From assembly GCA_030390025.1 (NCBI GenBank), contig CM059452.1, positions 16,616,001 through 16,649,592 of the forward strand: a stretch of DNA of 33,592 nucleotides, in the 5' to 3' direction. Each line of letters begins with the position of its first letter. Within the stretch, counting starts at the first letter, position 1. Below are positions 9,001 to 33,592 of this stretch, piece after piece. The notes below the pieces were generated by a model. The model was not told the origin of the DNA and ran no database searches. It saw only the letters and a list, made by a program, of their open reading frames with translations. Both the position numbers and the translations under genes were made by a program. The stretch is from Squalus acanthias (Eukaryota).

Positions 9001-9050
9001 TAATTGCTATTCTCCTCTCGCTGGTGGGGGAGTTGGAGGTACAGCCGTTT
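1..9050. repeat. Higher-order direct duplication within the 52-bp array, period 4997-4998 bp
   Basis: The ORF track repeats with a constant offset (47/5044, 127/5124, 847/5844, 1679/6677, 2712/7709, 2849/7846) and near-identical translations. Sequence 1-~4200 matches ~4998-~9050 with scattered substitutions. Confidence 0.95.
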
Positions 9051-12000: not shown

Positions 12001-15000
12001 TGAACAATTGTCCTTTCCTCTCTCTCTGGTACGGCAGCGGGTACAATGGGTTAACAATTGCCCTTTCCCCTCTCTCTGGTGCGGGACTGGGGTACAGTGG
12101 GTTAACAATTGCCCTTTCCTCTCTCTAAGGTGGGGGAGTGGGGGTACACTAGGTGAACAATTGCCCCTCCCTCTCTCTCTGGTGTGGGAGTGGGATATAC
12201 AGCTGGTTAACAATTCCCCTTTCTCCTCTCTCTGTTGGGGTGGTGGGCTTTACAGTGGTTTAACAATTGCCCTTTCTCCTCTCTCTGCTGGGGTCTGGGG
12301 GTACATTCGGTTAACAGTTGCCCTTTTCCCTCTCTCTGGTGGAGGATTGGGGGGTACAGTGACTTAACAATGGCCCTTTTTCTCTCTCTGTTGGGGTGGT
12401 GGGTGGAACAGCTGGTTAACAATTGCCCTTTCCTGTCTCTGTGGTGGGGGTGTGGGGGTACAGTAGGTTAACAGTTGCCCTTTCCTCTCTCTCTGGTGGG
12501 GTGTGGGTGTACAGTGGTTTAACAATTGCCCTTCCCCCTCTCTCTTTTGGGGGAGTGGAGGTACACTGGTTTAACAGTTGCCCATTCCTCTCTCTCTGGT
12601 GGGGGAGTGGGGGTACAGTGGGTGAACAATTGTCCTAACCCCTATCTCTGGTGGGGGAGTAGCGGTGCATTGGGTTAACAATTGCCCTTCCCCCTCTCTC
12701 TGGTTGGGGAGTGGGGGTACAGTTGTTTAACAATTGCACTTTCCCCTCTCTCAGTTGGGGGATGGGCGTACAGTGAGTTAAAAATTGCCCTTCCCCTCTC
12801 TCTGGTGGTGTCGTGGGGGTACAATGTGTTAACAATTACCCTTCCCCCTCACGCTGGTGGGAGTCTGGGGGTACAGTGGTTTAACAGTCGCCCTTTCCCC
12901 TCTCTCTGGTGCGGGACTGGGGGTACACTGGGTTAACAATTGCCCTTTCCCCTCCCTCTGGGTGGGACTGGGGGTACAGTGGGTTAACAAATGCCCTTTC
13001 CGCTCTCTCTGTTGGGGGAGGGGGAGGTACAGTTGGTTAACAATTGCCCTTCCCCCTCTCTCTGTTGCGGAGCTGGGGGTACAGTGGGGTAACAATTGCC
13101 CTTTCCCCTCTCTCTGTCGGGGTGTGGGGGTACAGTGGGTTAACAATTGCCCTTCCCCCTCTCTCTTTTGGGGGAGTGGAGGTACAGTGGTTTAACAGTT
13201 GCCCATTCCTCACTCTCTAGTGGGGGAGTGGGGGTACAGTGGGTTAACATTAGTCCTTTCCCCTCTCTCTGGTGGGGGAGTGGGGGTACAGTTGTTTAAC
13301 AATTGCCCTTTCCCTGCTCTCTGGTTGGGGATTGGGGATACAGTGAGTTAAACATCGCCCTTCCCCTCTCTCTGGTGGTGTAATGGGGGTACAATGTGTT
13401 AACAATTACCCTTACCCCTCTCGCTGGTGGGGGACTGGGGGTACAGTGGTTTAACAGTCGCCCTTTCCCCTCTCTCTGGTGCAGGAGTTGTGATACAGTC
13501 GGTTAACAATTGCCCTTTCCTCTCTCTAAGGTGGGGGAGTGGGGGTACACTGGTTGAACAATTGTCCTTTCCTCTCTCTCTGGTACGGCAGCGGGTACAA
13601 TGGGTTAACAATTGCCCTTTCCCCTCTCTCTGGTGCGGGACTGGGGTACAGTGGGTTAACAATTGCCCTTTCTTCTCTCACTGGTGGGGTAGTGGCAGGT
13701 ACAGTGGGTTAACAATTGCCCTTTCCTCGCTCACTGGTGGGGTAGTGGGAGGTACAGTGGGTTAACAATTGCTCTTTCCCCGCTCACTGGTGGTGGAGTG
13801 CGGGTATAGTGGGTTAACAATTGCCCTTTCATCTCTCTCTCTTGGGGGAGTGGCTGTACAGTGAGTTAGCAATTCTCATTTTCCCTCTCTCTGGTGGGGG
13901 AATGGGGTACAGTTGGTTAGCAATTACCCTTCCTCCTCTCGCTGGTGGGGGACTGGGGGTACAGTGGTTTAACAATTGCCCTTTCCTCTCTCTAATGTGT
14001 GGGAGTGGGGGTACACTGGATGAACAATTGTCCTTTGCTCTCTCTCTGGTACGGCAGCGTGTACAATGGGTTAACAATTGCCCTTTCCTCTCTCTCTGGT
14101 GTGGGAGTGGGGTACAGTTGGTTAACAATTGCCGTTTCCTCTCTCTCTGGTGAGGGTGATTCGGTACCGTAGTTTAACAATTGGACTTTCCTCTCTCGCT
14201 GCTTGGGTAGCGGGTATTCAGTGGTTTAATAATTGCTCTTTCCCCTCTCTCTGGTGTGGGAGTTGGGGTACAGTGTGTTAACAATTGCCCTTTCCACTCT
14301 CTCTGATGTGGGAGTGGGGGGTACAGTGTGTTAACAATTGCCCTTTCCCCTCTCTCTGATGTGGGAGTGGGGGGTACAGTGTGTTAACAATTGCCCTTTC
14401 CCCTCTCTCTGGTGTGGGACTGGAGTACAGTGTGTTAACAATTGCCCTTCCCCCTCTCTCTGATGTGGGAGTGGGGTGTACAGTGTGTTAACAATTGCCC
14501 TTTCCCTTCTCTCTGGTGTGGTACTGGAGTACAGTGTGTTAACAGTTGCTCTTCCCCCTCTCTCTGTTGGTGGAGTGAGGGTACAGTTGTTAACAATTGT
14601 CCTTTCCTCTCTCTAAGGTGGGGGAGTGGGGGTACACTAGGTGAACAATTGCCCCTCCCTCTCTCTCTGGTGGGGGAGTGGGATATACAGCTGGTTAACA
14701 ATTCCCCTTTCTCCTCTCTCTGGTGGGGGAGTGTGGTTACAGTGTGTTTACAATTGCCCTTTCCTCTCTCTAAGGTGGGGGAGTGGGATATACAGCTGGT
14801 TAACAATTCCCCTTTCTCCTCTCTCTGTTGGGGTGGTGGGCTTTACAGCGGGTTAACAATTGCCCTTTCCCCTCTCTCTGCTGGGGGGCTGAGGGTACAT
14901 TGGGTTAACAGTTGCCCTTTTCCCTCTCTCTGGTGGAGGATTGGGGGGTACAGTGACTTAACAATGGCCCTTTCCCCTCTCTCTGTTTGGGTGGTGGGTG

Positions 15001-16913
15001 GAACAGTTGGTTAACAATTGCCCTTTCCTGTCTCTGTGGTGGGGGTGTGGGGGTACAGTAGGTTAACAGTTTCCCTTTCCTCTCTCTCTGTTGGGGTGTG
15101 GGGGTACAGTGGTTTAACAATTGCCCTTCCCCCTCTCTCTTTTGGGGGAGTGGATGTACAGTGGTTTAACAGTTGCCCATTCCTCTCTCTCTGATGGGGG
15201 AGTGGGGGTACAGTGGGTGAACAATTGTCCTAACCCCTATCTCTGGTGGGGGAGTAGCGGTGCATTGGGTTAACAATTACCCTTCCCCCTCTCTCTGGTG
15301 GGGGAGTGGGGGTACAGTTGTTTAACAATTGCCCTTTCCCCTCTCTCAGTTGGGGGATGGGGGTACAGTGAGTTAAAAATTGCCCTTCCCCTCTCTCTGG
15401 TAGTGTCGTGGGGGTACAATGTGTTAACAATTACCCTTCCCCCTCACGCTGGTGGGAGTCTGGGGGTACAGTGGTTTAACAGTCGCCCTTTCCCCTCTCT
15501 CTGGTGCGGGACTGGGGGTGCACTGGGTTAACAATTGCCCTTTCCCTCCCTCTGGTGCGGGACTGGGGGTACAGTGGGTTAACAAATGCCCTTTCCGCTC
15601 TCTCTGGTGGGGGAGTGGGAGGTACAGTTGGTTAACAATTGCCCTTCCCCCTCTCTCTGTTGCGGGACTGGGGGTACAGTGGGGTAACAATTCCCCTTTC
15701 TCCTCTCTTTGTTTGGGGAGTGGGAGGTACAGTAGGATTAACAAATGCCCTTTCTCCTCTCACTGTTGGAGGAGTGGGAGTTACAGTGGGTTATCAATTG
15801 CCCTTTCTCCTCTCACTGGTGGAGGAGTGGGAGTTACAGTGGGTTAACAATTGCCCTTTCCTCTCTCTCTATTGGTGGAGTTGGGGTACAGTGGATTAAC
15901 AATTGCCCTTTCCTCACTCTCTGGTAGGGGAGTGCGGGTATAGTGGGTTAACAATTGCCCTTTCATCTGTCTCTCTTGGGGGTGTGGGGGTACAGTGAGT
16001 TATCAATTCTCATTTTCCCTCTCTCTGGTGGGTGAATGGGGTACAGTTGGTTAGCAATTACCCTTCCCCCTCTCGCTGGTGGGGGACTGGGGGTACAGTG
16101 GTTTAACAATTGCCCTTTCCTCTCTCTAATGTGTGGGAGTGGGGGTACACTGGATGAACAATTGTCCTTTGCTCTCTCTCTGGTACGGCAGCGTGTACAA
16201 TGGGTTAACAATTGCCCTTTCCGCTCTCTCTGGTGGGGGCATTTCGGTACCGTAGGTTAACAATTGCACTTTCCTCTCTTGCTGCTTGTGGAGTGGGGAT
16301 TCAGTAGTTTAATAATTGCCCTTTCCCCTCTCTCTGGTGTGGGAGTGGTGTTACAGTGGGTTAACAATTGCCCTTCTCCCTCTCTCTGTTGGGGTAGTGG
16401 GGGTACAGTGGGTTAACAATTATGCTTTCCCCTCTCTCTGTTGGGGGAGTGCGGGTACAGTTGGTTAACAATTGCTCTTTCCCCTCTCTCTGCTGGGGGA
16501 GTGGGGGTACAGTGGGTTAACAATCGCACTTCCCCATGTCTATGCAGGGGGTGTAGGAGGTTCTGTTGCTTAACAATTGCCTTTTGCCCTCTCTCTGGTG
16601 GGGGATTGGGGGTACAGTTGGTTAACAACTGCCCTTTCCCCTCTCTCTGGTGGGGGAGTGGGGTACAGTGAGTTAATAATTGCCCTTCCCCCTCTCTCTG
16701 GTGGGGTGGTGGGTGGTACAGTGGTTTAACAATTGCCCTTTCCCCTCTCTCTGGTGGGGGAGTTGGGGTGCAGTGAGTTAACAGTTGCTCTTTCCTTCCT
16801 CTCTGGTGGGGGAGTGGGAGCTACAGTTGGTTAACAGTTGCTCTTTCCCCTCTCTCTGGTGGGGGAGTGGGGAGTACAGTGTGTTAACACTTGCCTTTCC
16901 CCTCTCTCTGGTG
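1..16913. repeat. 52-bp minisatellite array, >=16.9 kb (open at the window start)
   Basis: Uninterrupted tandem copies of consensus GGTGGGGGAGTGGGGGTACAGTGGGTTAACAATTGCCCTTTCCCCTCTCTCT (52 nt; monomers 50-53 nt). Length/52 gives about 325 monomers. It ends abruptly at ...ctctctctggtg|agataca (16913). Confidence 0.98.
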
Positions 16914-17145
16914 AGATACAGTTCATGGTCCTCTGTGGCCCGCATTTCAGCTGGTGCGATGCTGCAAATTATAACTGTCCCATATTCTGATGGGATGGAC
17001 AACATGAGAAACAGCGAGACCGAGATCTTAATGTGCAGCCTTGGTTTGTCGGTAATGTGAATATTAAGATTCCCCCAGCGGAAGGAAATTTGCTCAAGTT
17101 ACTTTGAGGAATCCTGTAGTGAGAGAGCTTCACTCTGTCTCTAAC

Positions 17146-19334
17146 AAAGCAAACTACGAAGATATGAGGGGCGAGTTAGCTAAGGTAGATTAGTAAACTA
17201 CATTATAAGGTATGACAGTGGACGTGCAATGGCTGGCATTTAAAGAATTAATAAATCATTTACAACAAATATACATTCCTTTCCGGCACAAAAACCCCAC
17301 AGGAAAACTGGTCCAACCGTGGCTAACAAGAGAAGTTAAAGATCGTATTAAATCAAACGAAGAGACTGATAACGCTGCCAAAAGATTAGTAAGCCAGGGG
17401 ATTGGGAGGAATTTAGAATTCTGCAAAAGAAGACGAAGAAATTGATAAAGAAATGGAAAATAGAATATGAGAGTATACTAGTGAGAGACATAAAAACAGA
17501 CTGTAAAAGCTGCTATAGGTATGTAAAAATGTAAAGATTAGCGAAAATAAATGTGGGTCCCTTCCAGGCTGAGACAGGAGCAATTATAATGGGGAATAAG
17601 GAAATGGCTGAGCAATTAAGGAAATACTTTGTGTCCGTCTTCACGGAAGAAGACGCAAAAAGCTTCCTGGAAATAGGGGACAACAAGGGTCTAGCGAGAA
17701 TGAGGAACTGAAAGATATTAGTGTTGGTAAAAAAAGTAGTACTGGAGAAATTAATGGGACTGAAAGCCGATAAATCCGCTGGATGTGATGGCCTACATGC
17801 AAGAGTTGAAGGAGTTGGCTATCGAGATAGTGGTTGTCATTTTCCAAAATTCCATAGATTCCAGAACTGTTCCCCTGGATTGGAAGGTGGAAAATGAAAC
17901 TCCACTATTTAAGAGAGGAGGGAGAGAGAAATCGGGGAACAACAGACCAGTTAGAATTACATCAGTAGTAGGAAAAATGCTAAATTATTAAGGACGTGGT
18001 AACAGGGGACTTAGAAAATAATAATAGGATTGGGCAGAGTCAACACGGATTTATGAAAGGAAAATCGTGTTTGACGATTCTGTTCGAGTTTTGAGTTTAT
18101 AACTATCAGAATAGATCATGGGGAACCAGTGGATGTGGTGTATTTGGATTTTCAGAAGGCATTCGATAAGGTGCCACACAAGAGGTTATTAAACAAAATT
18201 AGGGCTCATGAGATTGTGGGTAATAAACTAGCATGGATTGAGGATTGGTTAACGGACAGAAAACAGAGAGTAGGAATGAACGGGTCATTTGCGGATTAGC
18301 AGGCTGTAACTAGTGGGGTACCCAAGGATCAGTGCTTGGGCCTCAGCTATTCCCAATTTACATCAATGATTTGGATGAGGGGACCAAATGGAATATTTCC
18401 AATTTTGCTGATGAAACAAGGCTGAGTGGGAATGTAAGTTGTGAGGAGGATTCAAAGAGGCTTCAAGGGGATATAGACAGGCTAAGTGAGTGGGCAACAA
18501 CATGGCAAATGGAATATAAGGTGGAGAAATGTGAAGTTATGCACTTTGGGAGGAAAAACAGAAAAGCAGAGTATTTTTAAATGGTGAGAGACTGGGAGAT
18601 GTTGGTGTTTAGAGGAGCTTGGTGTCCTTGTACACGAATCACTGAAAGGTAACATGCAGGTACAGCAAGCAATTAGGAAAGCAAATGGTATGTTGACCTT
18701 TATTACAAGAGGATTTGAGTGTAAGAGTAAAGACGTCTTACTGCAATTATATAGGGCCCTGGTGAGACCACACCTGGGTATTGTGTACAGCTCTGTTCTC
18801 CTTACCTAAGGAAGGGTATACTTGCCATAGAGGGAGTGCAACGAAAGTTCACCAGACTGATTCCTGGGATGGGGGGATTGTCCTATGAGGACAAATTGAG
18901 TAGACTAGGCCTATATTCTCTAGAGTTTTGAAGAATGAGAGGTGATCTCATTGAAACATACAAAATTTTACAGGGCTTGACAGTGTGGATGCAAGGAAGT
19001 TATTTCCCCTGGCTGAGGAGTCTAAAACCAGGGAGATCACAATCTCAGAATAAGGGGTCGGCCATTTAGGTCTGAGATGAGGAGCAATTTCTACACTCAG
19101 AGGATGGTGAATCTTTGGAATTCTCTACCCCAGAGGGCTGTGGAGGCTCAGTCGTTGAGTATATTCAAGACAGAGATCGATAGATTTTTGAGTATTAAGG
19201 GGGTCAAGGGATATGGGGATAGTTCAGGAAAGTGGAGATGAGGTAGAAGATCAGCCATGAACTTATTTAATGGCGGAGCGGGTTCGAAGCGCCAAATGGC
19301 CGACTCCTGCTCCTATTTCTTAAGTTGTTTATGT
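17146..19334 (+). mobile_element. 5'-truncated, decayed CR1-clade LINE (ORF2 linker plus RT domain plus 3' UTR)
   Basis: Broken ORF2 segments: QPWLTREVK, IFQNSIDSRTVPLDWKVENETPLFKRGGREKSGNNRPVRITSVVGKML, YLDFQKAFDKVPHKRL, LGPQLFPIYINDLDEG..FADETRL, WQMEYKVEKCEVMHFG. CR1-type 3' end ...gactcctgctcctatttcttaagttgtttatgt. Flanked by TCTAAC at 17140-17145 and 19335-19340. Confidence 0.95.
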
Positions 19335-19496
19335 TCTAACCCGTGATGTAATCTGAGCTGGGAGCGCTGGCGTTACAAGCCTTGTGCCCGAGAACCGCAA
19401 ACACCCTACTTCAGATAAACAGCTCCCCCTTGGCAAAAATGGGAAAACAATTAATTCAGCGGCTGTGTGTTTAACTCACGATCGGAAGAAAAGGCC

Positions 19497-19512
19497 TTTA
19501 TTGATTTTTATT
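19497..19512 (-). terminator. Tandem polyadenylation signals of the secretory mu transcript
   Basis: Two AATAAA hexamers on the minus strand (19507-19512 and 19497-19502), 22-37 nt downstream of the tailpiece TGA (19534-19536). Confidence 0.8.
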
Positions 19513-19533
19513 TAAGAACTGAGATGCAGTTTC

Positions 19534-19922
19534 TCATTGATAAGAATTGACAGTGTCCATCAGTACAAGGGAAATGTTCACAAGCATTGTTTACCGCTGG
19601 ATTTATTGATCGTTCTGGTGATGATCTTCAAGGGGAGCGCTTCATGTCCCACCACACAGGAGTAAGAAGCGCCGCTGGCCCACTCCTCCGCTGCAATGGA
19701 TAACAGGCTGTAAATGAAGAAGGAACTGCTGCCGTTCTCCGCCATCACCTCGGTGTTCTTGTAGTTGCTGGAATTCACCGGCTTGTCATTGACGATCATC
19801 TTGACGAAGATCTCTCGGGGGGAGAAACCTCTCCCTAAGCAGGTGAGGTGACGAACCTCTGAGCGGAGATTTCTTCTGCCGAGGGCAGGAGGACAGACAC
19901 GGACGTTTCCGCGTATCTTTAG
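19534..19922 (-). pseudogene. IGHM: IgM heavy chain CH4 exon plus secretory tailpiece, frameshifted
   Basis: Acceptor ...gtcctgcag|CT at 19922. Repaired translation: [126 protein letters not shown], closely matching recalled shark Cmu4 plus tail. It has three 1-nt deletions, the conserved Trp is replaced by Met, and the penultimate Cys is Tyr. The internal G|GTAAA donor used for TM splicing is retained (GT at 19593-19594). Confidence 0.95.
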
Positions 19923-20111
19923 CTGCAGGACAATTACAATAAAAAGGACAATAAACTGGAGAATTCCAGAGACAATGAAGCGGTGGTTAGATGTGACAGA
20001 AATGTGCTTTCCGCTGAATTTTAAAGGATTTATATTTCCCATCTGGGCCCTGTCCCATTTCCAGCCCGGAGCTGAGGGCTATTCCATCCTTGTCTCTGAG
20101 AGCTTGAAGAG

Positions 20112-20272
20112 TTGAATTTACAGCACAGAAACAGGCCATTCTGCCCAACAGATCTGTGCTGGTGTTTATGCTCCACAGGAGACTCCAACCACCTTAATTC
20201 ATCTAAACCCAATAACATATCCTTCTATTCCTTTTTCTCTCATGGACTTATCTAGTTTCCCATTAAGTGCAG
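20112..20272 (-). mobile_element. Short 3'-end fragment of a CR1-like LINE in the CH3-CH4 intron
   Basis: acagcacagaaacaggccattctgcccaac...gtttatgctccac...catatccttctattcc...ttatctagtttccc is the reverse complement of a CR1-type 3' terminus (compare gggccgaatggccgctttctgtgctgtaa at 28173-28201). Confidence 0.75.
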
Positions 20273-20417
20273 ATTATCGGGTGCCAGAGTGTTTAGTTAG
20301 TGGAATTACCAATCTGAATTATCAGAGTAGTCCATTGAAGCTCTTAATAGAACGAATTGGCACAAGGACAGCAAATAGTCACAATGTCTCACTTATTGCT
20401 ACAATTTCACCGCTCAC

Positions 20418-20726
20418 CTTTTTCCTTGTGGATGGAATTCCTTATAGGAGTCGGCATATCCTGATGGTTCACCACGCAGGTGAACTCATCCCCACTCAGC
20501 CAGGCTTGTGTCGAGATGTTGAAGTTGCTGATCACGCTGTTGGGATCCTCTCCGGTTTGAACGGCAATCTGTGATTTCAAAATATTCTTTCCTCTGGTCC
20601 AGGTCACGTTGACTCCATAAGGAGCATTAGACACGAAGCAGTTTAAGGTCATCGTGGCCTCCAGTAAGACCTGTTCTAGTGACGGTTACCGAAGAATAAT
20701 CACTGGACCGTTGCATGAGGAAGGAT
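20418..20726 (-). pseudogene. IGHM: IgM heavy chain CH3-type exon with an in-frame stop
   Basis: 309-nt phase-1 exon, tttctgtttcacag|AT...AAAG|gtgagc. Translation [102 protein letters not shown]. The C1-set Cys/Trp/Cys are intact, and the EQVLLEAT and CVVNHQ..PTP.R.SIHKE motifs are typical of shark Cmu3. TAA at 20686-20688. Confidence 0.93.
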
Positions 20727-21419
20727 CTGTGAAACAGAAATGAAAGTCAAGCAAGGCTTCATCTTCACAATCAGGATACCAGTGTTCAGCCATTACTGTC
20801 TCAAGGAGAATAAATCACCTTTGAGATATCACCCTCTCGCTGTTGCTTAAACACCATCATTAATGGAATGACAAGGAATTGGCAACGATTCCGGGAGACT
20901 CTTTAACATTTCCAGTGTATTTGCTCCCAGAGCCTCCTGTAATGGGCTGTGAGCAAATACGCGGCGTAACAAAATGAATAAATTCGGGTGCAATTGTTTT
21001 ACGCACTGAATAACGCTCTTCCCGAAATCCCTTGCTCCTTTATGCCAGTCTATAGACCCTTGAGCTCGATCACATCTCCGCTCATTATAATGGCGCCGCC
21101 CCCAGGGTCACGAGCTCGACACGAAAATTACACTCGTTCAAAACGTCTGTCAAACAAAATCCAGGATTTTAGGTGCAAAAAAGTTAATTTTCTGGTGACT
21201 TGTTGTAATTTTTGTCGCGATGAAAATTTGCAGGAACCAGTTGCAGCTCCCGTCAGAGAAAAAGTGAAAGGTCGAGAGAATGGAGTTCCAAGGGGTCTTT
21301 TGTGTTGGGGAAAAATGTGTAATGCCGGTGTGAGGTAGTTTGTTCATTTCTGTCATTAGTGAACGTTTATCGTGTCTGGTGAGAGAGTCTGAATGGAATA
21401 TGACCGCAGGGCATTAATA

Positions 21420-21955
21420 CCAACACAGGGACAGGAGGAGGTCATTCAGCGCCTCCAGCCTGTTCCGACATTTAATTACATCATGACTGATCTGCACCTC
21501 AACACCATCTACCCGCCTTGTTTCTGTAACCCTTGATACCCTTGTCGAACAAAAATCCAGCAAACTCAGTTTTGAAATTTTTAATTGACCCCCAGCCTCA
21601 ACAGCTTTTTGGGGGAGAGCAGTCCAGATTTCCACTACCCTTTGTGTGAAGGAATCCTTCCTGACATCACCGCTGCGGCCTAGCTCTAATTTTAAGGTTA
21701 TGCTCCTTGATCTGGACTCCCCCACCTATATCAACCCAATCAATTCCATTTATCAACTTAAACACCTCAATTAGATCACCTCTTAATCTTCTATACTCAA
21801 AGGAATACAAGCCTATTCTGTGCAACCTGTCCTCATTATTTTACACTTTTATCCGCGGTATCATTCTGGTAAATCTGCACTGTAGCCCCTCCAAGGCCAG
21901 TATATCCTGCCTGATGTGTGGTGCCCAGAATTGAACGCAGTTCTCTAAATAGGGT
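21420..21955 (-). mobile_element. 5'-truncated CR1 LINE 3' fragment
   Basis: The minus strand reads PYLENCVQFWAPHIRQDILALEGLQCRFTRMIPRIK...GESRSRSITLKL...VRKDSFTQRVVEIWTALPQKAVEAG, the CR1 ORF2 C-terminus, followed by a CR1-type 3' UTR. Confidence 0.9.
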
Positions 21956-22145
21956 AGATGCCCTTTCTAGCAGTCGGTTCCTGGACAGTTACCAGTAAAG
22001 GGTTCCAGACACCCACTGCCGCTCCGAATATGATCAGCCAACTCAGGAAAAACCTGCGACCAAGGACACCTCACTAACTGTCTGACACCAGAGCAGAGAG
22101 AAACATTCTTTGCCGAGATTAGTGAATCCTGAACCGTGAGGAATC

Positions 22146-22424
22146 CTGATTCAGAAGATCGTGGGTTCAAGTCCCACTCCAGAGACTTGAACACGAAATG
22201 TAAATCGACACTCCCAGTTCAGTACTGAGGGGGGCGCTGCACTGTCGGAGTTGCTGTCTTTCACATCAGATGTTAAACCGAGGATCCGCCTGCTCACGCA
22301 GGTGTGCGTAATAGATCCCATGGCACTATTTCGAGGAAGAGCAGGGGAGTTCTCCCGGTGTCCTGGCCAATATTTATCCCGAAACAAACATCACTAAACC
22401 AAAAGGTTATCTGGTCATTATCAC
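22146..22424 (+). mobile_element. tRNA-derived Deu-domain SINE (SacSINE1/AmnSINE1-like), truncated at both ends
   Basis: Pol III B box GGTTCAAGTCC at 22164-22174, then gctgcactgtcggag..gtctttc..gttaaaccgagg..agatcccatggcactatttcg..agagcaggggagttctcccggtgtcctggccaa, matching the recalled Deu-domain consensus. The A box is absent, and the element stops at ggtcattatcac where the 38-bp array starts. Confidence 0.85.
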
Positions 22425-25400
22425 CAGAACTGCGCACAGTATTCTAAGAGCGATATGGACAGCGTAACTCTACACAGTAATCTAAGTGTGATATGGAGAC
22501 CAGGACTGTGCAGAGTATTCAAAGTGTGATATGGAGACAGAACTGTGTACAGTATTCTAATTTTGATAAGTAGATCAGAACCGTGCATGATACTCTAAGT
22601 GTGAAATGGAGAACAGAACTGTCCACAGTATTCTGAGTGTGATAGGGAGATCAGAACTGTGCCGATAACACTAAATGTAATATGGAGATCAGAACTGTGA
22701 ACAGTATTCTAAGTGTGATATGGAAACCAGAACTCTATACAGTATTCTAAGTTTGATATGACACCAGAACTGTGCATATACCTCCAAGTGTGATACGGAG
22801 ACCAGAACTCTACACAGTATTCTAAATGTGATAGGAGAACAGACCTGTGCACAGAACTCTAAATGTGATATGAGACCAGAACTGTGTACAGCATTTCTAA
22901 GTGTGATATGGAGACCAGAACTGTGCACAGTTTTCTAAGTGTGATATGAGACCAGAACTCTACACAGATTTCTAAGTTTGATATGAGATCAGAACTGTGC
23001 ACAGAACTCTAAATGTGATATGAGACCAGAACTTTACACAGTATTCTAAGTGTGATATGGAGAACAGAACTCTGCACAGTATCCTAAATGTGATAGGAGA
23101 ACAACCTGTGCACAGAACTCTAAATGTGATATGAGACCAGAACTGTGTACAGCATTCTAAGTGTGATATGGAGACCAGAACTGTGCACAGTTTTCTAAGT
23201 GTGATATGAGACCAGAACTCTACACAGATTTCTAAGTGTGATATGAGACCAGAACTGTGCACAGAACTCTAAATGTGATATGAGACCAGAACTTTGCACA
23301 GTATTCTAAGTGTGATATGGAGATCAGAACTCTGCACAGTCTTCTAAGTATGATATGGAGATCAGAATTGTGCACAGTACTCTAAGTGTAATATGGAGAC
23401 GAGAACTCTACACAGTATTCTAAGTGCGTTATGGAGACCAGAACTCTGCACAATATTGTAAGTGATATATGGAGACCGGAACTCTTCACAGTACTCAAAA
23501 TGTGATATGGAGACCAGAGCTGTGCACAGTATTTTAAATGTGATATTGGGACCAGGACTGTGCAGAGTATTCAAAGTGTGATATGGAGACCAGAACTGTG
23601 CACAGTATTCTAAGTGTGATATGGAGACCAGAACTGTGCACAGTACTCTAAGTGTGATATGGAGACCAGAACTGTGCACAGTATTCTAAGTGTGATATGG
23701 AGACCAGAACTCTGCACAGTATTCTAAGTGTGATATGGAGACCAGAACTCTGCACAGGATTCTAAGTGTGATATAAGACCAGAACTGTGCACAGAACTCT
23801 AAATGTGATACGAGACCAGGACTGTGCACAGTATTCTAAGTGTGATATGGATACCTGAACTCTGCACTGTACAGTAAGTGTGCTATGGAGACCAGAATTG
23901 TGCACAATACTTTAAGTATGATATGGAAAACAGAACTGTGCAGAGTGTACTAAATGTGACATGGAGACCAGAATTCTGCACAGTACAGTAAGTGTGATAT
24001 GGAGAGCGGAACTATACACAATATTCTAAGTGTGATATGAGACCAGAATGTGCAAATAACTCTAAATATGACATGAGAACAGAACTGTGCTACAGTACAG
24101 TAAGTGTGATATGGTGACCAGAACTGTGCATATTATTCTAAGTGTGATATGAGACCAGAACTGTGCACAGAACACTAAATATGATTTGAGACTACAACTT
24201 TGCACAGTATTCTAAGTGTGATATGGAGACCAGAATTGTGCACAATACTTTAAGTATGATGTGGAGACCAGAACTCTGCACAGTACAGTAAGTGTGATAT
24301 GGAGACATGAACTGTGGACATTACTTTAAGTATGATGTGGAGACAAGAACTGTGCACAGTATTCTAAGTGTGATATGGAGACCAGAACTGTGCACAGTAT
24401 TCTAAGTATGATATGGAGACCAGAACTGTGCACAGTATTCTAAGTGTGATATGGAGACCAGAACTGTGCACAGTATTCTAAGTGTGATATGGAGACCAGA
24501 ACTGTGCACAGTATTCTAAGTGTGATATGGAGACCAGACTGTGCACAGTATTCTAAGTGTGATATGGAGACCAGAACTGTGCACAGTATTCTATTTGTGA
24601 TATGGAGACCAGAACTGTGCACAGTATTCTAAGTGTGATATGGAGACCAGTACAGTGCACAGTATTCTAAGTGTGATATGGAGACCACAACTGTGCACAG
24701 TATTCTAAGTGTGATATGGAGACCAGAACTGTGCACAGTATTCTAAGTGTGATATGGAGACCAGAACTGTGCACAGTATTCTAAGTGTGATATGGAGACC
24801 AGAACTGTGCACAGTATTCTAAGTGTGACATGGAGACCAGAACTCTGCACAGTATTCTAAGTGTGATATGAGACCAGAACTGTGCACAGAACTCTAAATG
24901 TGATATGAGACCAGAACTGTGCACAGTATTCTAAGTGTGATATGGAGACCAGAACACTGCACAGTATTCTAAGTGTGATATGGATACCTGAACTCTGCAC
25001 TGTACAGTAAGTGTGATATGAGACCAGAATTGTGCACAGTATTCTAATGTGATATAGAGACCTGAACTCTGCTCATTACAGTAAGTGTGCTATGGAGACC
25101 AGAATTGTGCACAATACTTTAAGTATGATATGGATACCAGAACTGTGCAGAGTGTACTAAATGTGACATGGAGACCAGAATTCTGCACAGTACAGTAAAT
25201 GTGATATGGAGAGCGGAACTATACACAATATTCTAAGTGTGATATGAGACCAGAACTGTGCACTTAACTCTAAATATGACATGAGAACAGAACTGTGCAC
25301 AGTCCAGTAAGTGTGATATGGTGAGCAGAACTGTGCATATTATTCTAAGTTTGATATGAGACCAGAACTGTGCACAGAACACTAAATATGATATGAGACT

Positions 25401-25917
25401 ACAACTGTGCACAGTATTCTAAGTGTGATATGGAGGCCAGAATTATGCACAATACTTTAAGTATGATATGGATACCAGAACTGTGCAGAGTGTACTAAAT
25501 GTGACATGGAGACCAGAATTCTGCACAGTACAGTAAGTGTGATATGGAGAGCGGAACTATACACAATATTCTAAGTGTGATATGAGACCAGAACTGTGCA
25601 CATAACTCTAAATATGACATGAGAACAGAACTGTGCACAGTACAGTAAGTGTGATATGGTGACCAGAACTGTGCATATTATTCTAAGTGTGATATGAGAC
25701 CAGAACTGTGCACAGAACACTAAATATGATGTGAGACTACAACTGTGCACAGTATTCTAAGTGTGATATGGAGACCAGAACTCTGCACAGTACAACAAGT
25801 GTGATATGGAGACCAGAACTGTGCACAGTATTCTAAGTGTGATATGGAGACCAGAACTATGCACAGTATTCTAAATGTGATATGGTGACCAGAACTGTTC
25901 ACAATACTCTAAGTGTG
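22424..25917. repeat. 38-bp minisatellite array derived from CR1 ORF2
   Basis: About 92 tandem copies (length/38) of CCAGAACTGTGCACAGTATTCTAAGTGTGATATGGAGA, with 36-nt variants. The near-perfect core lies at about 24350-24850. The minus strand translates as HLEYCAQFWSPY. Confidence 0.97.
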
Positions 25918-25965
25918 GACTAACCAAATTACTATAAAAGTTGAACATATCTCCTTACCTTATGA
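25880..25965 (-). mobile_element. CR1 ORF2 remnant running directly into the 38-bp array
   Basis: Minus strand from ATG at 25946-25948: MFNFYSNLVSPHLEYCEQFWSPY, collinear with the CR1 copies in this window (EVMLNLYKSRVRPQLKYCLQFW at ~27692; LYRALVRPHLEYCVQF at ~31469). Confidence 0.85.
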
Positions 25966-25996
25966 CAGTTTTAGCCCTGTATCCCACAACACTAAC

Positions 25997-26296
25997 TTGC
26001 CATTGTGATGTTCCAGATCGACTCACTTCGTCGACCCACGCAGTAGATTGTGCTGCTCCCCACCTCTGACTCGGTGAGGGTTAACTGGCTGCTCAGGGTT
26101 TAGGTTCCCCTCTTGTTGAGCACTGACAAGTAAATCTTCTATCCAGTGGTGAGCGGCTCTTTACCTTTCTTCCAGGAAAGGCTGGTGATTTCGGGGGAGT
26201 AGTCCATCGCCAAATAGCCGAAGGTGACGGAGCCGTCGGTGTTGGGTTGTTGACAGGAGGAGAGCAGGGTGAAGAGGGTGGGAGGAGACTGTGTCG
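25997..26296 (-). pseudogene. IGHM: IgM heavy chain CH1 exon with two in-frame stops
   Basis: 300-nt phase-1 exon, cattctttcccag|CG...GCAA|gttagt. Translation (A)[97 protein letters not shown], matching recalled shark Cmu1. TAG at 26139-26141, TAA at 26100-26102, and the first intradomain Cys codon is TAT (26214-26216). Confidence 0.95.
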
Positions 26297-26569
26297 CTGG
26301 GAAAGAATGGCCAATTGAACAAGTTAGAATCTGTAATCCGTGCTCATCAAACAACCAAACAACTCGAAATTTGACTCCGGGATAATCTCATTCCATCTTT
26401 TTTCCGCACAAAGACTACATCTTCATTTGAGCTTCTGTCAGTTCCATCATTGGCACCTGTAGAACCCCTGGTCAGGAACACACCTCTCTGTCCCCGAGCC
26501 CTAACACATTACAGAAATAAGAACCTTTGCTCCTCACCTCAATAAACTATCTTTTATTGGATCATAGAA

Positions 26570-26730
26570 TAGAAGAGCAGTCTCGTTTCCCTGCTATATC
26601 GGCCAGCATTTATTTCTCAATCCACGACACTTTCATTCATTCATTTCATTGCAGTTTTTGGAAATTTGCTCTGTGCCAATTTGCTGCTCCGTTTCCTTAC
26701 AAAACAACAGTGATTATACTTCAACAGTAA
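26570..26730 (+). mobile_element. Degenerate 3' half of a second Deu-type SINE
   Basis: agaagagcag...ggccagcatttatttctcaa parallels 22337-22385, then cattgcagtttttggaaatttgctctgtgccaatttgctgctccgtttccttacaaaacaacagtgattatacttcaa resembles the recalled SINE tail. Confidence 0.65.
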
Positions 26731-27212
26731 CAGCGTAATCCGTGCTTATAAAATTAGCTATAACTCCTCAAACCTTGACTAACATAGAACTGAACAGGGA
26801 ACTTATCCATGGCCTAGTTTCTAAGATTCAAGCTGCAGATGAATCGGGATTGATTCGAACATATCTCTTTCCTTCTCAGTATTTGAGGAAGAGTGATGTA
26901 TTTCAACGCATTGTGATTTGTGCTCTGTCCCATTCTATTGAATGGATGTCTCCTGAGTTTCCTCATCCCTCCCGCTAAATTAATAATCCGAATTAAATAC
27001 GATTCCCAAGCCCGGTCAATTGGAAGTGTCTCTTTAAATGGCCAATTTCATTTACCAAAGTACCTTCCGCCTCCCACCAGTGAGAAGAGGCGCTGCTTTT
27101 TGTGTCCTAACAGGAACCACTTGTTGCTGTTTGTACCGAGCATAGTCTAAACATCGGGGCAGGTTTCTTCTCTAAATATCTAATATTGGCAATCCTTAGA
27201 CATTACAAATCT

Positions 27213-28217
27213 ATAGGAGGCAGAGAATAGTGGTGAGCGGATGTTTTACAAACTGTAGAAAATGATGCAGTGGGGTCTCCCATGGATCGGTATGAGGACT
27301 ATTGTTGTTCTTGTTATATAAAAATTACCTGGTCTTGGGTATAGGGAGTACAATTTCGAAGTTTGCAGATGATACAAAACTTGGCAAAGATGCAAATAGT
27401 GAGCAGGATAGTAGCAGACTTCAGGAGGACATAAACATACTGGGAAAATGGACAGACACATGGCAGGTGCAATTTAATGCAGACAAGTGTGAAGCGATGC
27501 ACTTTGGGAGGAACAACATGGAGAGGCAGCATAATCTGAATGGTGCTATTTTGAGGGGATGTAAGAACAGAGAGACCTGGATTTGCATATTTACAAATCG
27601 TTGAGGATGGCAGTGCAAGTTGATAAAGCTGTTATGAAAGCGTATGAGATACTTGGCTTTGTAAATGGGGGCACTGCATATAAAAAACAATGAAGTTATG
27701 CTAAACCTTTACAAATCACGGGTTAGGCCTCAGCTGAAGTATTGTTTACAATTCTGGCACCACAATTTAGGAAGAAGGACTCGGCCTTGGAGAGGGTATC
27801 GAGGAGGTTTACCAGGATGATACCAGGGATGAGAGACTTCAGTTATGTGGAGAGATTGGAGAAGCTGGGATATTCTCCTTAGAGCTGAGGTTAAGTGGAG
27901 ACCTATTAGAAGTGTTCAAAGCTATGGGAGGTTTTGATAGAACAAATAGACAGAAACTCTTTCCTCTGGCAAGTCGGTCACAGATTTAAAATAATTGGCA
28001 AAGATCTAGAGGGGAAATTGGGGTAATTTTTTCACACAGAGAGTTGCTAATTTCTGAATGCACCAGGCAGCTGGACATGTAATTGAAGAGGACTCATTTG
28101 CAGCGTTACGAGGAAAAAGCTGGGGTGTTGGGTGAAATTGGACAGCTCTTTCAGAGGCGGCACAGGCAAGACGGGCCGAATGGCCGCTTTCTGTGCTGTA
28201 ATTTGCTCTGATTCTAC
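27213..28217 (+). mobile_element. 5'-truncated CR1 LINE of a different subfamily
   Basis: ORF 27302-27604 contains TISKFADDTKLG...RLQEDINILGKWTDTWQVQFNADKCEAMHFGRNN (RT C-terminal motifs). The downstream ORF2 tail is frameshifted. 3' end gggccgaatggccgctttctgtgctgtaatttgctctgattcta. Confidence 0.92.
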
Positions 28218-28939
28218 ATGAGTCAGCGGAAATAGTTCTTCCCGATTTAATGGAAGTAAGCGCTTCATATTCTGAACACTTTCTATCAGATTTATTTTAT
28301 TGTTTGTTATAATGAAAGAGAATTTTTAAAATAAAGGGATCTGAGCAATCTGACGCAAATGAGTGAATCGGTTACTGTTGTAAAGTCTTAAAGCTCATTA
28401 TGAATGACGGCTCATTGCAGGCTGACTGTCAATCTTTAAATGTTTCACAGAAGTGCAGCTCAGTGACTGTCTGCCTTGTGTTGTGACCCAGTCCAATAAC
28501 TGCAATTCGGCCGAATTTGTCCCTTTTCAAAAGAAAATTGAACAAAAATAATGGTTTCATACTTAAATTCCCATGATGGTAATTTGGAGTGGGGGAATCA
28601 ACATTCTCCATTTAAATTGTCAAAATAACTTCCAGCCTCTCGTCAGATCAGAACAGGCGCTGCTTTCTGGAGCGTTACAGACACTTCCTGAAACTGTTTG
28701 TTCTGAAAGTGAGCTCAGGATCAGGCCTATCTCATTCAATAATTATCTGATACTCAAAATGTGTCAACAGTAACAATTCATTCAAATTTGGGCATTTTTT
28801 TCAGAAAGAACGTTAACGTCAATTAAGGTGCGTTGTGTCATTGGGGCAATAGAACGATTTATGTTTATATGTCTGGCTCAAGCACCCGCTCCTTAGTAGT
28901 TAGATGCCGATTAAGATTCCTTCAATACTGTTGGAAAAA

Positions 28940-29325
28940 ATACTCTCATGTCAGATAGAGTACAGATACAATAGAGTAAATCTCGCTCTACACTGGCCTG
29001 TCACGCGCTGTAAGGTTAGGTATAGCAAAGGTTGAATTCACCTAAAACACCCTACTGCACTGCCCTGTCAGACACTCGTTTCAAATATAGCAAGGTTTAG
29101 GTTCCGAGTAAAGCTCCCTTTACACTTTCCCTTCAAACACTCCCAGGGCAGATACAGCACGGGTTAGATACAGAGTAAAGCTCCGTCGACACTGTCCCAT
29201 CAAACACTCCCAGGGCAGGTACAGCACGGGTTAGATACAGAGTAAAGCTCCCTCTACACTGTCCCATCAAACACTCCCTGGGCAGGTACAGCATGGGTTA
29301 GAAACTGATTAAAGCTCTATCTGCA
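28940..29325. repeat. 67-bp tandem repeat, about 5-6 copies with degenerate edges
   Basis: Unit ACAGCACGGGTTAGATACAGAGTAAAGCTCCCTCTACACTGTCCCATCAAACACTCCCAGGGCAGGT; acagcac recurs at 29154 and 29221 (period 67). I recall it as a common dispersed repeat in shark DNA. Confidence 0.9.
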
Positions 29326-31148
29326 GTCTCCCTGCAGTGTCTCTGAACTGCTCCTTCTGAATGTCACAAACTCATTTACTGATCTCATTTCCGAGGCGCC
29401 TCCTCAACCTTAAAGTTAACCGTTCAAGTTTCTCACAGATAAAAGTTTCTTAAATAACTGAGTCAGATTACACTCCCTGAAATAGAGGAGAACGAAACAG
29501 GTTTACAACCAGTCAGGAGGACTCCTGATTCTCACACTGTGTGCAGGCGCACGGAAACAGACACATACGGTGCAACAATGGTGCTCCCGGCAGATAGATC
29601 TGTTCAATCTGTCAATTTCAATCAAGCTGTTTGATTTCTAATTTTATTCTTGTCAGTTTCCGACCACCTCAAATCTGCATGTTCTTTAAAATAAATCTGG
29701 TATTAATGTGAAAATCGCTTCAACATCCAACAATTTATCCCTCTCTGTCGACAATCTTGCAAACCGTGTAAGATTTAATTTCCCTCAAGGCAAGTATCTC
29801 GAAATAATTCACATTCCAGGATAATTTGCTGCCCGTAACACGGGACTCAGCGGCGGAGTAAGAATTTAACAAACCAGGAGACAGTTACATTGAAAACCGA
29901 TTACCCACTGATGTGCTATAATTATATAATTAAATAAAACCTATAAAATCATCGAGGGAAATCATGAAGTTAATTCATTAAAATCTGCGGCGACACCTTA
30001 TCGAGCCGAGCACAGCTGATAGAGAAATGTATTGTATCCTAAATTCATTTCCGATTTCACTAAACATTCTCTGCATTCCTTGAGATTTTGCAGTAACTGT
30101 AATCCTGACCAATATACAACGCAATTGTGAGAGTTCATTTTCGTTTAATGAATTAGCACTGATGTTATGTTCTAAGTTAATCTTCATGTTAACTGATTTT
30201 ACGCTGTATCATTGAAAATATTCTGTGAGCCTACCGGCCCTTCCTCCTCATAACCACCCGCACCTGGAACTGGTGTAATTAAATTAATCTGCTTGAATTT
30301 CAGTGTGTTATTTGTCATCTCCAGCCTTATTAATAACATTAATTCACAGTAATTTCAAACCTGTTTGTGACAGATAACTTGTGATATATTAGGGTTTTAA
30401 TTAAATTATCATGACAATTAATCAATATTAAATTATTAAGCATCATATTAATACATATATACATTCAGACAATATATTACTTTTACTTAAATCGAATCAC
30501 ATTTGAATAATTTAAAATGATCACGAACGTCTAATACTGTCCAGTTCTCTACCTACACCTTTTTAAACTCTGCATGTTTCAGATCTCTATGATATAACAT
30601 AAACTCCGTCTATTCTCAGCGTGAAGTTCACATTATGGGTTTAGGAGTGGATTGTTTTAAATAGTTCAATGTCCGGGCGGGGTCACATCTTACTAACTAC
30701 CGACGGGCTGTAACACCGCCTGTTTACTAAAGCTGGACTCTCGAGTTTAAATATTCTCCTCAATCGTAACCATAAAAAATATGTTTATTAATTACAAACC
30801 ACCCGGGCAGTTTGCAGTCAGTAACAGAGCCTGCGCTATTTAATAACACAGACTATCTTTTATATTTTACTCCTGTAATTCACAGAATGCCCGTAAATTC
30901 ATTATTAAATATAGTCTGCTATTGATTGAAAATAAGATCCAGTGTAAAACTGGACGAGAACAATTCTTTCAGACAATCTGCGGCACTGAACCTTAATGAG
31001 AAAATGGAGGAGAGACATTGTTCATCAAATTAATATTAATAAGAATGAAACATAACTCTCAGATATAATCTGTCCTTTGTCTATCGTTCTATCCCGTAAA
31101 GAGCAGAGCTATGGGAGACAGGATGTCGTTTTATATTGAAAATAATAT

Positions 31149-32047
31149 GAATGTAAGTTGTGAGGAGGATGCAAGAAGGCTTCAAGAGGATATAGACAGG
31201 CTAAGTGAGTGGGCAAGAACATGGAAATGGAATATAATGTAGAGGAATGTGAAGTTATCCACTTTGGTAGGAAAAATAGTAAAGCAGAGTATTTTTTAAA
31301 TGGTGAGAGATTTTGGGAAATGTTGGTGTTCAGAGGGACCTGGTTGTCCTTGTACACGAATCACTGAAAGTTAACATGCAGGTACAGCAAGTAGTTAGGA
31401 AAGCAAATGGTATGTTGAACTTTATTCCAAGAGGATTTGAGTATAAGAGTAAAGACGGCTACTGTAATTATATAGGGCCCTGGTGAGACCACACCTAGAG
31501 TATTGTGTACAGTTTTACCTAAGCAAGGATATTCTTGCCATAGACGGAGTGCAACGAAGGTTTACCAGTGTGATTGCTGGGATGGGGGGATTGTCCTGTG
31601 AGGAGAGATTTGCAGACTTGGCCTATTTTCTCTAGAGTTTAGATGAATGAGAGGTGATCTCATTAAAACATACAAAATTCTTACAGAGATTGACAGGGTA
31701 GATGTAGGGAGGATGTTTCCCCTGGCTGGGGAGTCTAGAACCAGGGGTCACAGTCTCAGAATAAGGAGTCGGCCATTTAGGACTGAGATGAGGAGAAATG
31801 TCATCACTTAGAGGGTGATGAATCTTTGGAATTCCCTTCCCGAGAGGGTTGTAGAGGCTCAGTCGTTGAGTATATTCAAGACAGAGATCGATAGATTTTT
31901 GGATATTAGGGCAATCATGGGATATGGGTATAGGGCAGGAAAGTGGAGATGAGGTAGAAGATTAGCCATGATCTTATTGAAAGGCGGAGCAGCTCGAGGG
32001 GCCAACTGGCCTAATCCTGCTCCTAATTATTACGTTATTATGTGCTT
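31149..32047 (+). mobile_element. 5'-truncated CR1 LINE, same subfamily as 17146-19334
   Basis: Aligns by eye, almost ungapped, with 18430-19334 (gaatgtaagttgtgaggaggat...gagtatattcaagacagagatcgatagatttttg...cctgctccta). Confidence 0.95.
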
Positions 32048-32861
32048 AATACATGCTTTATCTCCCGCTGAAACCGATTACAAACTGGACATTTCTCTAC
32101 CCATTGGTAGCCGGGCTATGAGAGGGTTGTTCTGGAATCCAAATCAGCACAAATTTAACTGCGCAGTGCGCGGCTGCTAATCAGTAATAAGGGAGCCTTT
32201 GCTTTAAATCAGGCGCAGAACTCTGTGAGAATATTCAAGTAAGTGCAGCGGGTTCAAGGCAATTCCACCTCTGTTTTATTTACTTTGTGATTCCCACTCA
32301 TCTCATTACAGTGTGGGTATGGGGTTATTAAAATCTCTCTCCAGCACTTCATGCAGTGCTGAATAAACGGAATGAATTATCTAGAATTATCTTTATTTGA
32401 CAATAATTAAATTAAATGGCGCGTTGATCAATGTATTATTTCTGATCCTATTTTATAATATTGTGATCATAGAATTTACCGAAAATCATGCTTTAGAAGT
32501 TATGCCATGTGAAATGATTCTTACTTGTGTAAGAGCTACAGAATAATGTAATGTTGAAATAGTTAAAACCCCTCTTGCTCCCATTCATATTCACACTAAT
32601 CTACCGCACACAGTATTTGGCAGCAATCCAGCCAACTGCTGTTAGCGAGGCTCGAACGCCCAGTGTCATTTACAGGAAGCATCTGGGGTTTCAGTACAGT
32701 AAATCAAATATCTGTTTCCTCACTACTGACCGCTTGGCTGAAACCAACTTCAAACCCATTATATTGTCAATGAGGTCATGATGTGGAGATGCCGGCGTTG
32801 GACTGGGGTGGACAAAAATGAGAAGTCGCACAACACCAGGTTATAGTCCAACAGATTTATT

Positions 32862-32908
32862 TAATTTTACAAGCTTTCGGAGCTATCGCTCCTTCGTCAG
32901 GTAAGTTA
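32862..32908 (-). ncRNA. Second, identical hammerhead motif in the inverted arm
   Basis: Exact reverse complement of 33342-33388. Confidence 0.8.
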
Positions 32909-33341
32909 GCAATGAGAGAATCTCCCAGAATTCACAATTTAAACCCAGACAAAATCTATTCACATTATTCGCTACAACATTCAGCCTCGGATCTGCGGGT
33001 AAGGGTTCTCCAAGGCGGCCTTCGAGATACACGACAGCGCAAAATCATAGAGCAGAAACTGATAGCCAAGTTCCGCACTCATGAGGATGGCCTCAATCGC
33101 GATATCGGGTTCATGTCACGATACAGAACGTGACTTGACATCATGGCCGGTTTTCCCAGGTGTTTTTTTTTTAAAAACACAAGAACACGAATTGACAGGA
33201 TATGCAGCCAGCAGGTGGTTTGACACGCTGGACCCCCTGGGACACATCTCATTGTCTTGGCTGTGCTCTTTGTTGTAGCGAATAATGTGAATAGATTTTG
33301 TCTGGGTTTAAATTGTGAATTCTGGGAGATTCTCTCATTGC

Positions 33342-33388
33342 TAACTTACCTGACGAAGGAGCGATAGCTCCGAAAGCTTGTAAAATTA
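33342..33388 (+). ncRNA. Minimal type-I hammerhead ribozyme motif
   Basis: taac-TTAC-CTGACGA-A-GGAGC-gata-GCTCC-GAA-AGCT-T-GTAA-aatta: both core boxes, a 5-bp stem II, a palindromic AGCT in place of stem III, and a TTAC/GTAA stem I. This is the architecture known from PLE hammerheads. Confidence 0.8.
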
Positions 33389-33592
33389 AATAAATCTGTT
33401 GGACTATAACCTGGTGTTGTGCGACTTCTCATTATTGTCAATGAGGACAGTTTATATACAAATCTACCCAGCAACAGTACTGGAGTCAAATTTCATGTTT
33501 TAGTTGTGTAACTGTCTGTTACTTTTCACATCTCTGAGGAAAGGAAATATATCCAAAGTCTCAGACACCATGTCAGCTGGAGGATCTGTCCA

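Follow-up and report, generated by a model that had tools for sequence, protein, structure and literature searches.

The window analysed here is a 33,592-nucleotide stretch of the Squalus acanthias genome (GenBank assembly GCA_030390025.1, contig CM059452.1, positions 16,616,001 to 16,649,592 of the forward strand), and all coordinates below are counted from its first letter. Shark IgM proteins mapped onto it placed three exons of an IgM heavy chain gene on the minus strand, and a long tandem array, delimited by Tandem Repeats Finder and by decomposition, lies between CH1 and CH3:

26001-26297, minus strand: IgM CH1 exon, broken
22423-25917, minus strand: 38-bp minisatellite array
20413-20727, minus strand: IgM CH3 exon with one in-frame stop
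19537-19909, minus strand: IgM CH4 exon and secretory tail, with two frameshifts

The CH1 exon contains two stops, a Tyr in place of its first Cys and a GC at the donor position. No CH2 exon was found with four shark IgM queries, each of which finds CH1, CH3 and CH4, and a CH2 profile search returned matches to paralogous domains only, with no decayed CH2 between CH1 and CH3. No V, J or TM exon was found within the window. The three stops, two frameshifts, the lost Cys and the absence of CH2 leave no open CH1-CH4 unit, and the host is an IgM pseudogene that lacks CH2. The original prediction had placed the array inside an Ig gene, which is correct in that IgM exons flank it, but the gene is a dead one. 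CH1 and CH3 are 5,268 bases apart, and the array takes up 3,495 of these, beginning about 80 bases behind CH1; the end of the CH1 exon lies about 30 bp from the LINE flank described below.

Tandem Repeats Finder gave a period of 38, 92.8 copies and 81% matches for 22423-25917 in this single haplotype, and decomposition by wrap-around alignment yielded 92 full monomers and one partial, which bears out the predicted 38-bp unit repeated about 92-fold. This head-to-tail arrangement of 92.8 copies of 38 bp is that of a minisatellite, for which units of about 11-60 bp and up to about 100 units are given in the relevant passages of two sources (PMC4992247, PMC6947457). The commonest 38-mer is represented exactly by 10 of the 93 monomers, the mean difference from it is 4.1 of 38 positions, and the base at monomer position 33 is missing in 26 of the 92. 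Read on the minus strand, the monomer consists of two nucleotides of a Pro codon followed by 12 codons that encode HLEYCAQFWSPY. Since 38 cannot be divided by three, no frame stays open through the array, whose longest stop-free stretch is 107 residues. Two further tandem arrays were reported by Tandem Repeats Finder elsewhere in the window.

A LINE fragment from the window, used as a query, matched 24 proteins, several of which have the reverse transcriptase domain PF00078 and one of which carries PF14529 and PF03372 besides it; five of the 24 are named as ray, shark or chimaera proteins (Hypanus, Chiloscyllium, Callorhinchus, Pristiophorus). The motif encoded by the monomer is present in 21 of these LINE ORF2 proteins. 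Among the 20 complete motifs, HLEYCAQFWSPY is identical at 12 of 12 residues to one, at 11 to two, at 10 to 13 and at 9 to four, in keeping with the original prediction that the minus strand encodes a conserved ORF2 motif. What is aligned is the post-RT motif of APE-RT ORF2 proteins, and the translation of the monomer fits it. An HMM built from the 21 ORF2 segments found 80 domain matches in 60 peptides of the array, each of them on the minus strand. The source gives the name CR1 to none of the 24 matched proteins; we take the LINE clade of the monomer and its flank to be CR1.

Four LINE copies in the window could be compared with the array:

17140-19340 (boundaries approximate), plus strand: LINE copy A, with reverse transcriptase PF00078, a comparison copy
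27200-28200 (boundaries approximate), plus strand: LINE copy B, a comparison copy and the best match to the flank
31149-32046, plus strand: LINE copy C, which shares 87% identity with copy A over 914 bp
21417-21955 (left boundary approximate), minus strand, as the array: LINE 3' fragment D, found as an ORF2 match

The fourth of these, on the array's own strand at 21953, had not been mentioned in the original prediction. The motif registers of copies A, B and C are at 18769, 27729 and 31490, on the strand opposite to the array. The monomer matches these three at only 22-23 of 38 positions, and since at least 23 of 38 was reached somewhere in the region by 119 of 1,000 shuffled monomers, this match is within the range of chance. 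Identity of the monomer to the LINE copies of the window ranges from 58 to 66%, so none of them is of the parental type.

At the right edge of the array the repeat runs into sequence that occurs once:

25918-25967, minus strand: LINE ORF2 flank that is not repeated and shares the reading frame of the first monomer (profile, HMM and register comparison)
25880-25917, minus strand: first monomer in the LINE sense, encoding HLEYCEQFWSPY (decomposition)

The minus strand from 25954 to 25880 reads without interruption as GDMFNFYSNLVSPHLEYCEQFWSPY. The 10 codons upstream of the His score 17.7 against the profile, a value equalled by 1 of 13,890 background peptides and by 0 of 20,000 shuffles, while none of the other 92 monomers is preceded by 10 codons that score above 4.8. 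The flank adds 11 bits to the score of the motif HMM (29.1 vs 17.8), and monomer and flank together do align to ORF2: the edge peptide matched the HMM of 21 ORF2 segments with an E value of 5.7e-8 among 1,827 window peptides, where a lack of such an alignment had been proposed as grounds for giving up the LINE origin. At the nucleotide level, with the register fixed by the motif, 40 bp of flank match copy B at 24/40 (0/20,000 shuffles), copy C at 22/40 (1/20,000) and copy A at 21/40 (1/20,000); the match to a monomer in the preceding position is only 8/40. It is only with the register fixed in this manner that the flank signal is significant. The flank alone gave no HMM match and no blastn match to the LINE copies of the window, and in free local alignment to copies A-C it reached scores that 260-409 of 2,000 shuffles also reached. 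The likeness to LINE sequence is clear to about 25957 and fades by about 25967-25977. The first monomer differs from the commonest one at four positions, at two of which (11 and 14) it agrees with copies B and C; the same two LINE-like bases also occur together in five other monomers.

These results agree with the original prediction that the last monomer runs unbroken into non-repeated LINE sequence, for about 40-50 bp in frame. The collinearity that it claimed with the copies at ~18765, ~27720 and ~31480 holds for the flank in fixed register; the match of the monomer to them is within the range of chance. The description of the array as caught with its parent, and as a clear record, went too far: a single flank of 40-50 bp is left, and the 3' part of the parent and a target-site duplication are absent. 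On comparison of the sequences, the derivation of the monomer and its right flank from a LINE ORF2 stands, because the identity of the 12-residue motif is joined by an unrepeated LINE flank in frame with it. One could argue instead that the array resembles CR1 by chance, with a decayed monomer as its flank, or that it is an artefact of assembly. The chance-level match of the monomer to copies A-C and the failure of blastn and the HMM to find the flank alone fit the former, yet chance would hardly produce the motif identity together with 80 HMM domain matches confined to one strand, and a decayed monomer was rejected because the flank is so much closer to the LINE copies than to the monomer. 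An artefact is opposed by the structured variants and small differences between blocks described below, which are unlike those of a collapsed or slipped assembly. We regard these explanations as extremely improbable, and as refuted to a good approximation.

Fragment D requires separate consideration. It matches the monomer at 25 of 38 positions, the best match in the window and one reached by 5 of 1,000 shuffles; it lies on the same strand about 470 bp beyond the left end of the array; and its ORF2 match sets in where the monomer does, at the Pro-His position. It might therefore be suggested that D is the parent's own 3' part, and that an insertion of about 470 bp has since interrupted a complete record. 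However, D has a motif of the WAPH type whose second half is closer to copy B than to the monomer, D and the monomer disagree at 13 of 38 positions where no monomer of the array departs from it at more than 11, and no target-site duplication longer than 6 bp was found between the flank and the end of D. The coincidence of start positions was noticed post hoc, and the alignment permits a weak upstream extension of D. We think it quite unlikely that D belonged to the parent. In view of its different motif type, and of the lack of a target-site duplication connecting it with the flank, we treat D as a probable separate insertion, which leaves the coincident start position unexplained.

The left end of the array falls inside a monomer and abuts a piece of a different kind:

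22146-22422, plus strand: SINE-like piece that contains a pol III B-box (22165)

This piece is a putative 3'-truncated, shark SacSINE1-like element. An Rfam search of 16900-33592 gave no matches, an ARAGORN search found no tRNA, and the comparison with a second SINE-like piece in the window scored 39.5, which is not significant (shuffle maximum 51.5). Next to the array there is no LINE 3' continuation. A search for a target-site duplication around it was negative; the longest shared word was 6 bp and lay away from the junctions. Since two elements converge on one junction at which both would lack their 3' ends, a deletion is suggested, which would have joined the array to the SINE and could also have taken CH2. 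The original prediction had allowed for a satellite-bearing CR1 derivative dispersed in the genome; because no LINE 3' end adjoins the array, a retrotransposing unit of this kind is unsupported, and a SINE-like piece stands where that 3' end and a target-site duplication were to be looked for. Of the earlier interpretation, the LINE ORF2 origin holds, while its wording on the Ig gene, the captured parent and the mobile derivative was overstated.

The internal organization of the array provides a record of its growth:

25090-25765, minus strand: 9-monomer higher-order block in two adjacent copies (monomers 5-13 and 14-22), 9 differences in 342
23883-24220, minus strand: a further copy of that block, the third, spanning monomers 46-54, with 9 and 11 differences in 342
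24335-24827, minus strand: homogeneous run (monomers 30-42), 0.69 differences per monomer
22793-23314, minus strand: duplicated 7-monomer block (monomers 70-76 and 77-83), 8 differences in 266

The three copies of the 9-monomer block show 9-11 differences in 342 among themselves vs about 50 from the commonest monomer; overall, block copies differ by 1.6-3.2% and are about 11% from the commonest monomer. Monomers that lie 32 or 41 units apart have on average 1.27 or 1.12 variants in common, more than the maximum of 1,000 permutations (1.03); at the 9-monomer offset alone the mean is 0.92, below that maximum. The array therefore grew by duplication of blocks of nine and seven monomers. The monomers at the left end (84-92) have the most private changes, 1.44 each vs 0.12-0.8 elsewhere, as expected of an old edge that escapes homogenisation. 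Unequal exchange and gene conversion give rise to locally organised blocks of variants in satellites, and they were probably the mode of growth at this locus as well.

How the first duplication came about is less clear from what survives. The commonest monomer contains a perfect 12-bp palindrome, a feature that was noticed post hoc, that 215 of 20,000 shuffled monomers also have and that has no counterpart of its length in 4,632 bp of LINE copies of the window. Perhaps the palindrome aided the first duplication. It is a weak lead, as is a hairpin, because the palindrome is intact in only 24 of the 92 monomers and missing from the first, and because a single monomer folds no better than its shuffles (z +0.55); three monomers fold modestly better (z -2.0 and -2.2; 7 and 9 of 200 shuffles) by way of pairing between monomers. 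In the Haber-Louis model, as described in passages of PMC6947457, a minisatellite originates from a unit bounded by direct repeats of 5-10 bp. No such repeats at 38-bp spacing were seen on the side of our array that survives and can be examined, where the upstream flank matches the end of the monomer at 2 of 13 positions, and for that reason the model is not confirmed here. Downstream of copies A, B and D at most the first base is in common with the start of the monomer; the downstream sequence of the true parent is missing.

We put at about even the chance that the array was born at this locus from a resident CR1-type LINE. The history that we infer under birth in place, with its deletion, its order of events and its neutrality, would run as follows. 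A short, probably 5'-truncated CR1-type LINE would have entered a shark IgM cluster immediately behind its CH1 exon, and a 38-bp stretch of its ORF2 would have been duplicated head to tail at this place, probably through slippage or a template switch with little microhomology. From there the array would have reached about 93 copies as individual monomers, and also blocks of 7, 9 or more of them, underwent unequal exchange or gene conversion. A later deletion would have fused its far end to the middle of the SINE, with the loss of the parental 3' part and probably of CH2. The array would be functionless and would persist because it lies in a dead gene within a repeat-rich region. Because a single flank is all that survives, and neither a 3' continuation nor a target-site duplication accompanies it, birth in place counts as a candidate history.

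The monomer may also have been born once elsewhere from CR1 and belong to a minisatellite family that is now dispersed. The array would then have been seeded at this locus when a resident CR1 took it up by ectopic recombination or conversion through the 38-bp motif, or when a block arrived together with its leader, or it would have come along as the IgM cluster was duplicated. Such seeding is a possibility that we take seriously, while rating it below an even chance. The SINE-derived satellites of squamates, according to passages of PMC10702118, have one extended terminal unit at most of their hundreds to thousands of loci, all of which share one unit; because a one-sided flank is typical of such dispersed satellites, anatomy cannot separate birth here from seeding. 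The four differences of the first monomer from the majority could mark where an incoming array joined a resident copy, and the two other tandem arrays of the window would also be in keeping with seeding. Landing sites abound, since CR1-group elements make up 22-34% of elasmobranch genomes (PMC13343379, in its passages on repeats). Against seeding, no second array was found, but in collections that hold no shark non-coding DNA one could hardly have turned up, and these blanks carry no weight on dispersal. An exact 22-mer had no match in bacterial and archaeal genomes, which likewise contain no shark non-coding DNA; a 62-residue peptide encoded by the array had no candidate among proteins of 34-109 residues; and none of 21 candidate stretches of LINE DNA in bacterial and archaeal contigs was confirmed. 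The 107-residue array peptide, searched against 1.84 billion proteins, gave one match (E 3.5e-5) to a repetitive protein of 2,343 residues that lacks the motif, which was rejected as chance. The block structure indicates a long local history and is compatible with birth in place and seeding alike.

The absence of CH2 has a parallel in the nurse shark, where IgM1gj is an IgM heavy chain that lacks the CH2 domain, according to passages of PMC5192425. Because IgM1gj also lacks CH2, the loss seen here may by analogy predate the array. The two share the missing domain, but IgM1gj is expressed and germline-joined, whereas the present gene is broken in all three exons and has no V, J or TM exon in the window; no protein named IgM1gj is among the shark IgM proteins matched. 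A bolder proposal takes the palindromic 38-bp stretch of CR1 ORF2 for a recurrent birth site of arrays in sharks and the present array for the seed of the CH2 deletion. This combination, which would be a LINE counterpart of the SINE-derived satellites of squamates with births told apart by phase and flank, we consider improbable; if true, it would offer a route to a three-domain IgM like IgM1gj. Taken as one array in an IgM cluster that is dead, the locus has no evident consequence for immunity.

What the locus does provide is a breakpoint known to the base on one side, a motif in the coding sequence by which the parent is identified, and block duplications from which its history can be read. 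This is of value as direct evidence that links interspersed and tandem repeats is limited, according to the squamate paper (PMC10702118, in part). If the unit were present genome-wide, sharks, with their 22-34% of CR1-group DNA, would be a good system in which to separate recurrent birth from dispersal. The conversion of transposable elements into tandem repeats, CR1 ORF2 included, is already covered in passages of reviews (PMC9659126, PMC6947457), and the array is a clean new example of this known process, retroelement to tandem repeat. We found no report of a CR1-derived minisatellite in sharks in the literature searched, which was mostly titles and abstracts, with few subscription journals and no repeat databases. 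The passages on elasmobranch repeats in PMC13343379 do not mention satellite or tandem, and the portion of PMC11406177 on such a unit describes a different, Y-linked one.

The closest parallel is that of the squamate sSat1-3 described by Vassetzky et al. (2023, PMC10702118, passages thereof). In both, an internal piece of a retroelement is repeated in tandem and one terminal unit extends into the parent, as it does here. The sSat arrays also consist of few to hundreds of units with locus-specific, alternating subvariants and a unit similarity of 82-94%. They differ in that their parent is a SINE and their unit about 70-290 nt, where ours is 38 bp of LINE ORF2 coding sequence; moreover, our leader of 40-50 bp stops short of the element terminus. 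The minisatellites that arose within Alu, B1 and MaLR elements resemble ours in having a short unit internal to a retroelement and in growing by slippage, conversion and unequal crossing-over (PMC6947457, in part). In the L1-derived satellites (cetacean common satellite, PROsat and Pvc 20), a LINE has likewise become tandem DNA, with ORF2 in two of them; however, these come from L1 instead of CR1 and are satellite families, not single intronic arrays (PMC9659126, in its passages on them). The chicken HinfI repeat (Li and Leung 2006) has a tandem unit with CR1 and partial ORF2 sequence, and the chicken Cen2, 3, 4, 7 and 11 repeats (Shang et al. 2010) likewise have CR1 sequence in the tandem unit, as summarised in portions of PMC9659126 and PMC6947457. 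However, the HinfI unit is larger and has the 3' UTR and part of ORF2 within it, and the Cen repeats belong to the centromeric satellites (same sources), whereas in the present array the whole unit is a 38-bp internal piece of ORF2, with its flank still attached, in the intron of a pseudogene.

The fourth LINE fragment in the window, D, lies on the minus strand, as does the array of the 38-bp monomer, and its match to ORF2 begins at the same position at which the monomer starts. LINE copies A (18430-19337) and C (31149-32046), both on the plus strand, are 87% identical across 914 bp and have a 3′ end in common, and copies B and D represent types more distant than this pair. Fragment D and the other features considered here are as follows.

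4-16913: 52-bp satellite, at least 327 copies, continuing past the left edge of the window
19537-26297, minus strand: pseudogene of an IgM constant region; exons CH1, CH3 and CH4 present, CH2 absent
21417-21955, minus strand: LINE fragment D
26560-26740: second SINE-like piece, upstream of CH1 and more decayed
28899-29332: tandem repeat with a 67-bp unit, present in 3.5 copies across 29085-29317 and, to the left of these, in decayed form
32811-33439: 169-bp inverted repeat, 99% complementary, spacing 291 bp

When the second SINE-like piece was aligned with the one that abuts the left end of the array (22146-22422), the score was not significant. The 67-bp tandem repeat is presumably one that is common across shark genomes. 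A 103-aa frame overlapping the inverted repeat had no Pfam match, and its end may resemble the tail of a Penelope-type GIY-YIG endonuclease.

The 52-bp satellite was not matched by the ORF2 motif HMM, a profile built from 21 LINE ORF2 protein segments carrying the monomer-encoded motif. Part of the satellite recurs almost unchanged 4,997-4,998 bp further along, including one uninterrupted run of 1,042 identical bases; either this duplication is very recent or it arose as an artefact of the assembly.

Two proteins annotated as Aeromonas, P0006 (a LINE ORF2 piece) and P0030 (an IgM piece), come from contigs of about 700 bp and are probably contaminating fish DNA within bacterial assemblies.

No TM exon of the IgM pseudogene was found in the interval from CH4 to the 52-bp satellite. 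The layout of this pseudogene, which lacks CH2, resembles that of IgM1gj, the nurse shark IgM heavy chain without a CH2 domain (PMC5192425).
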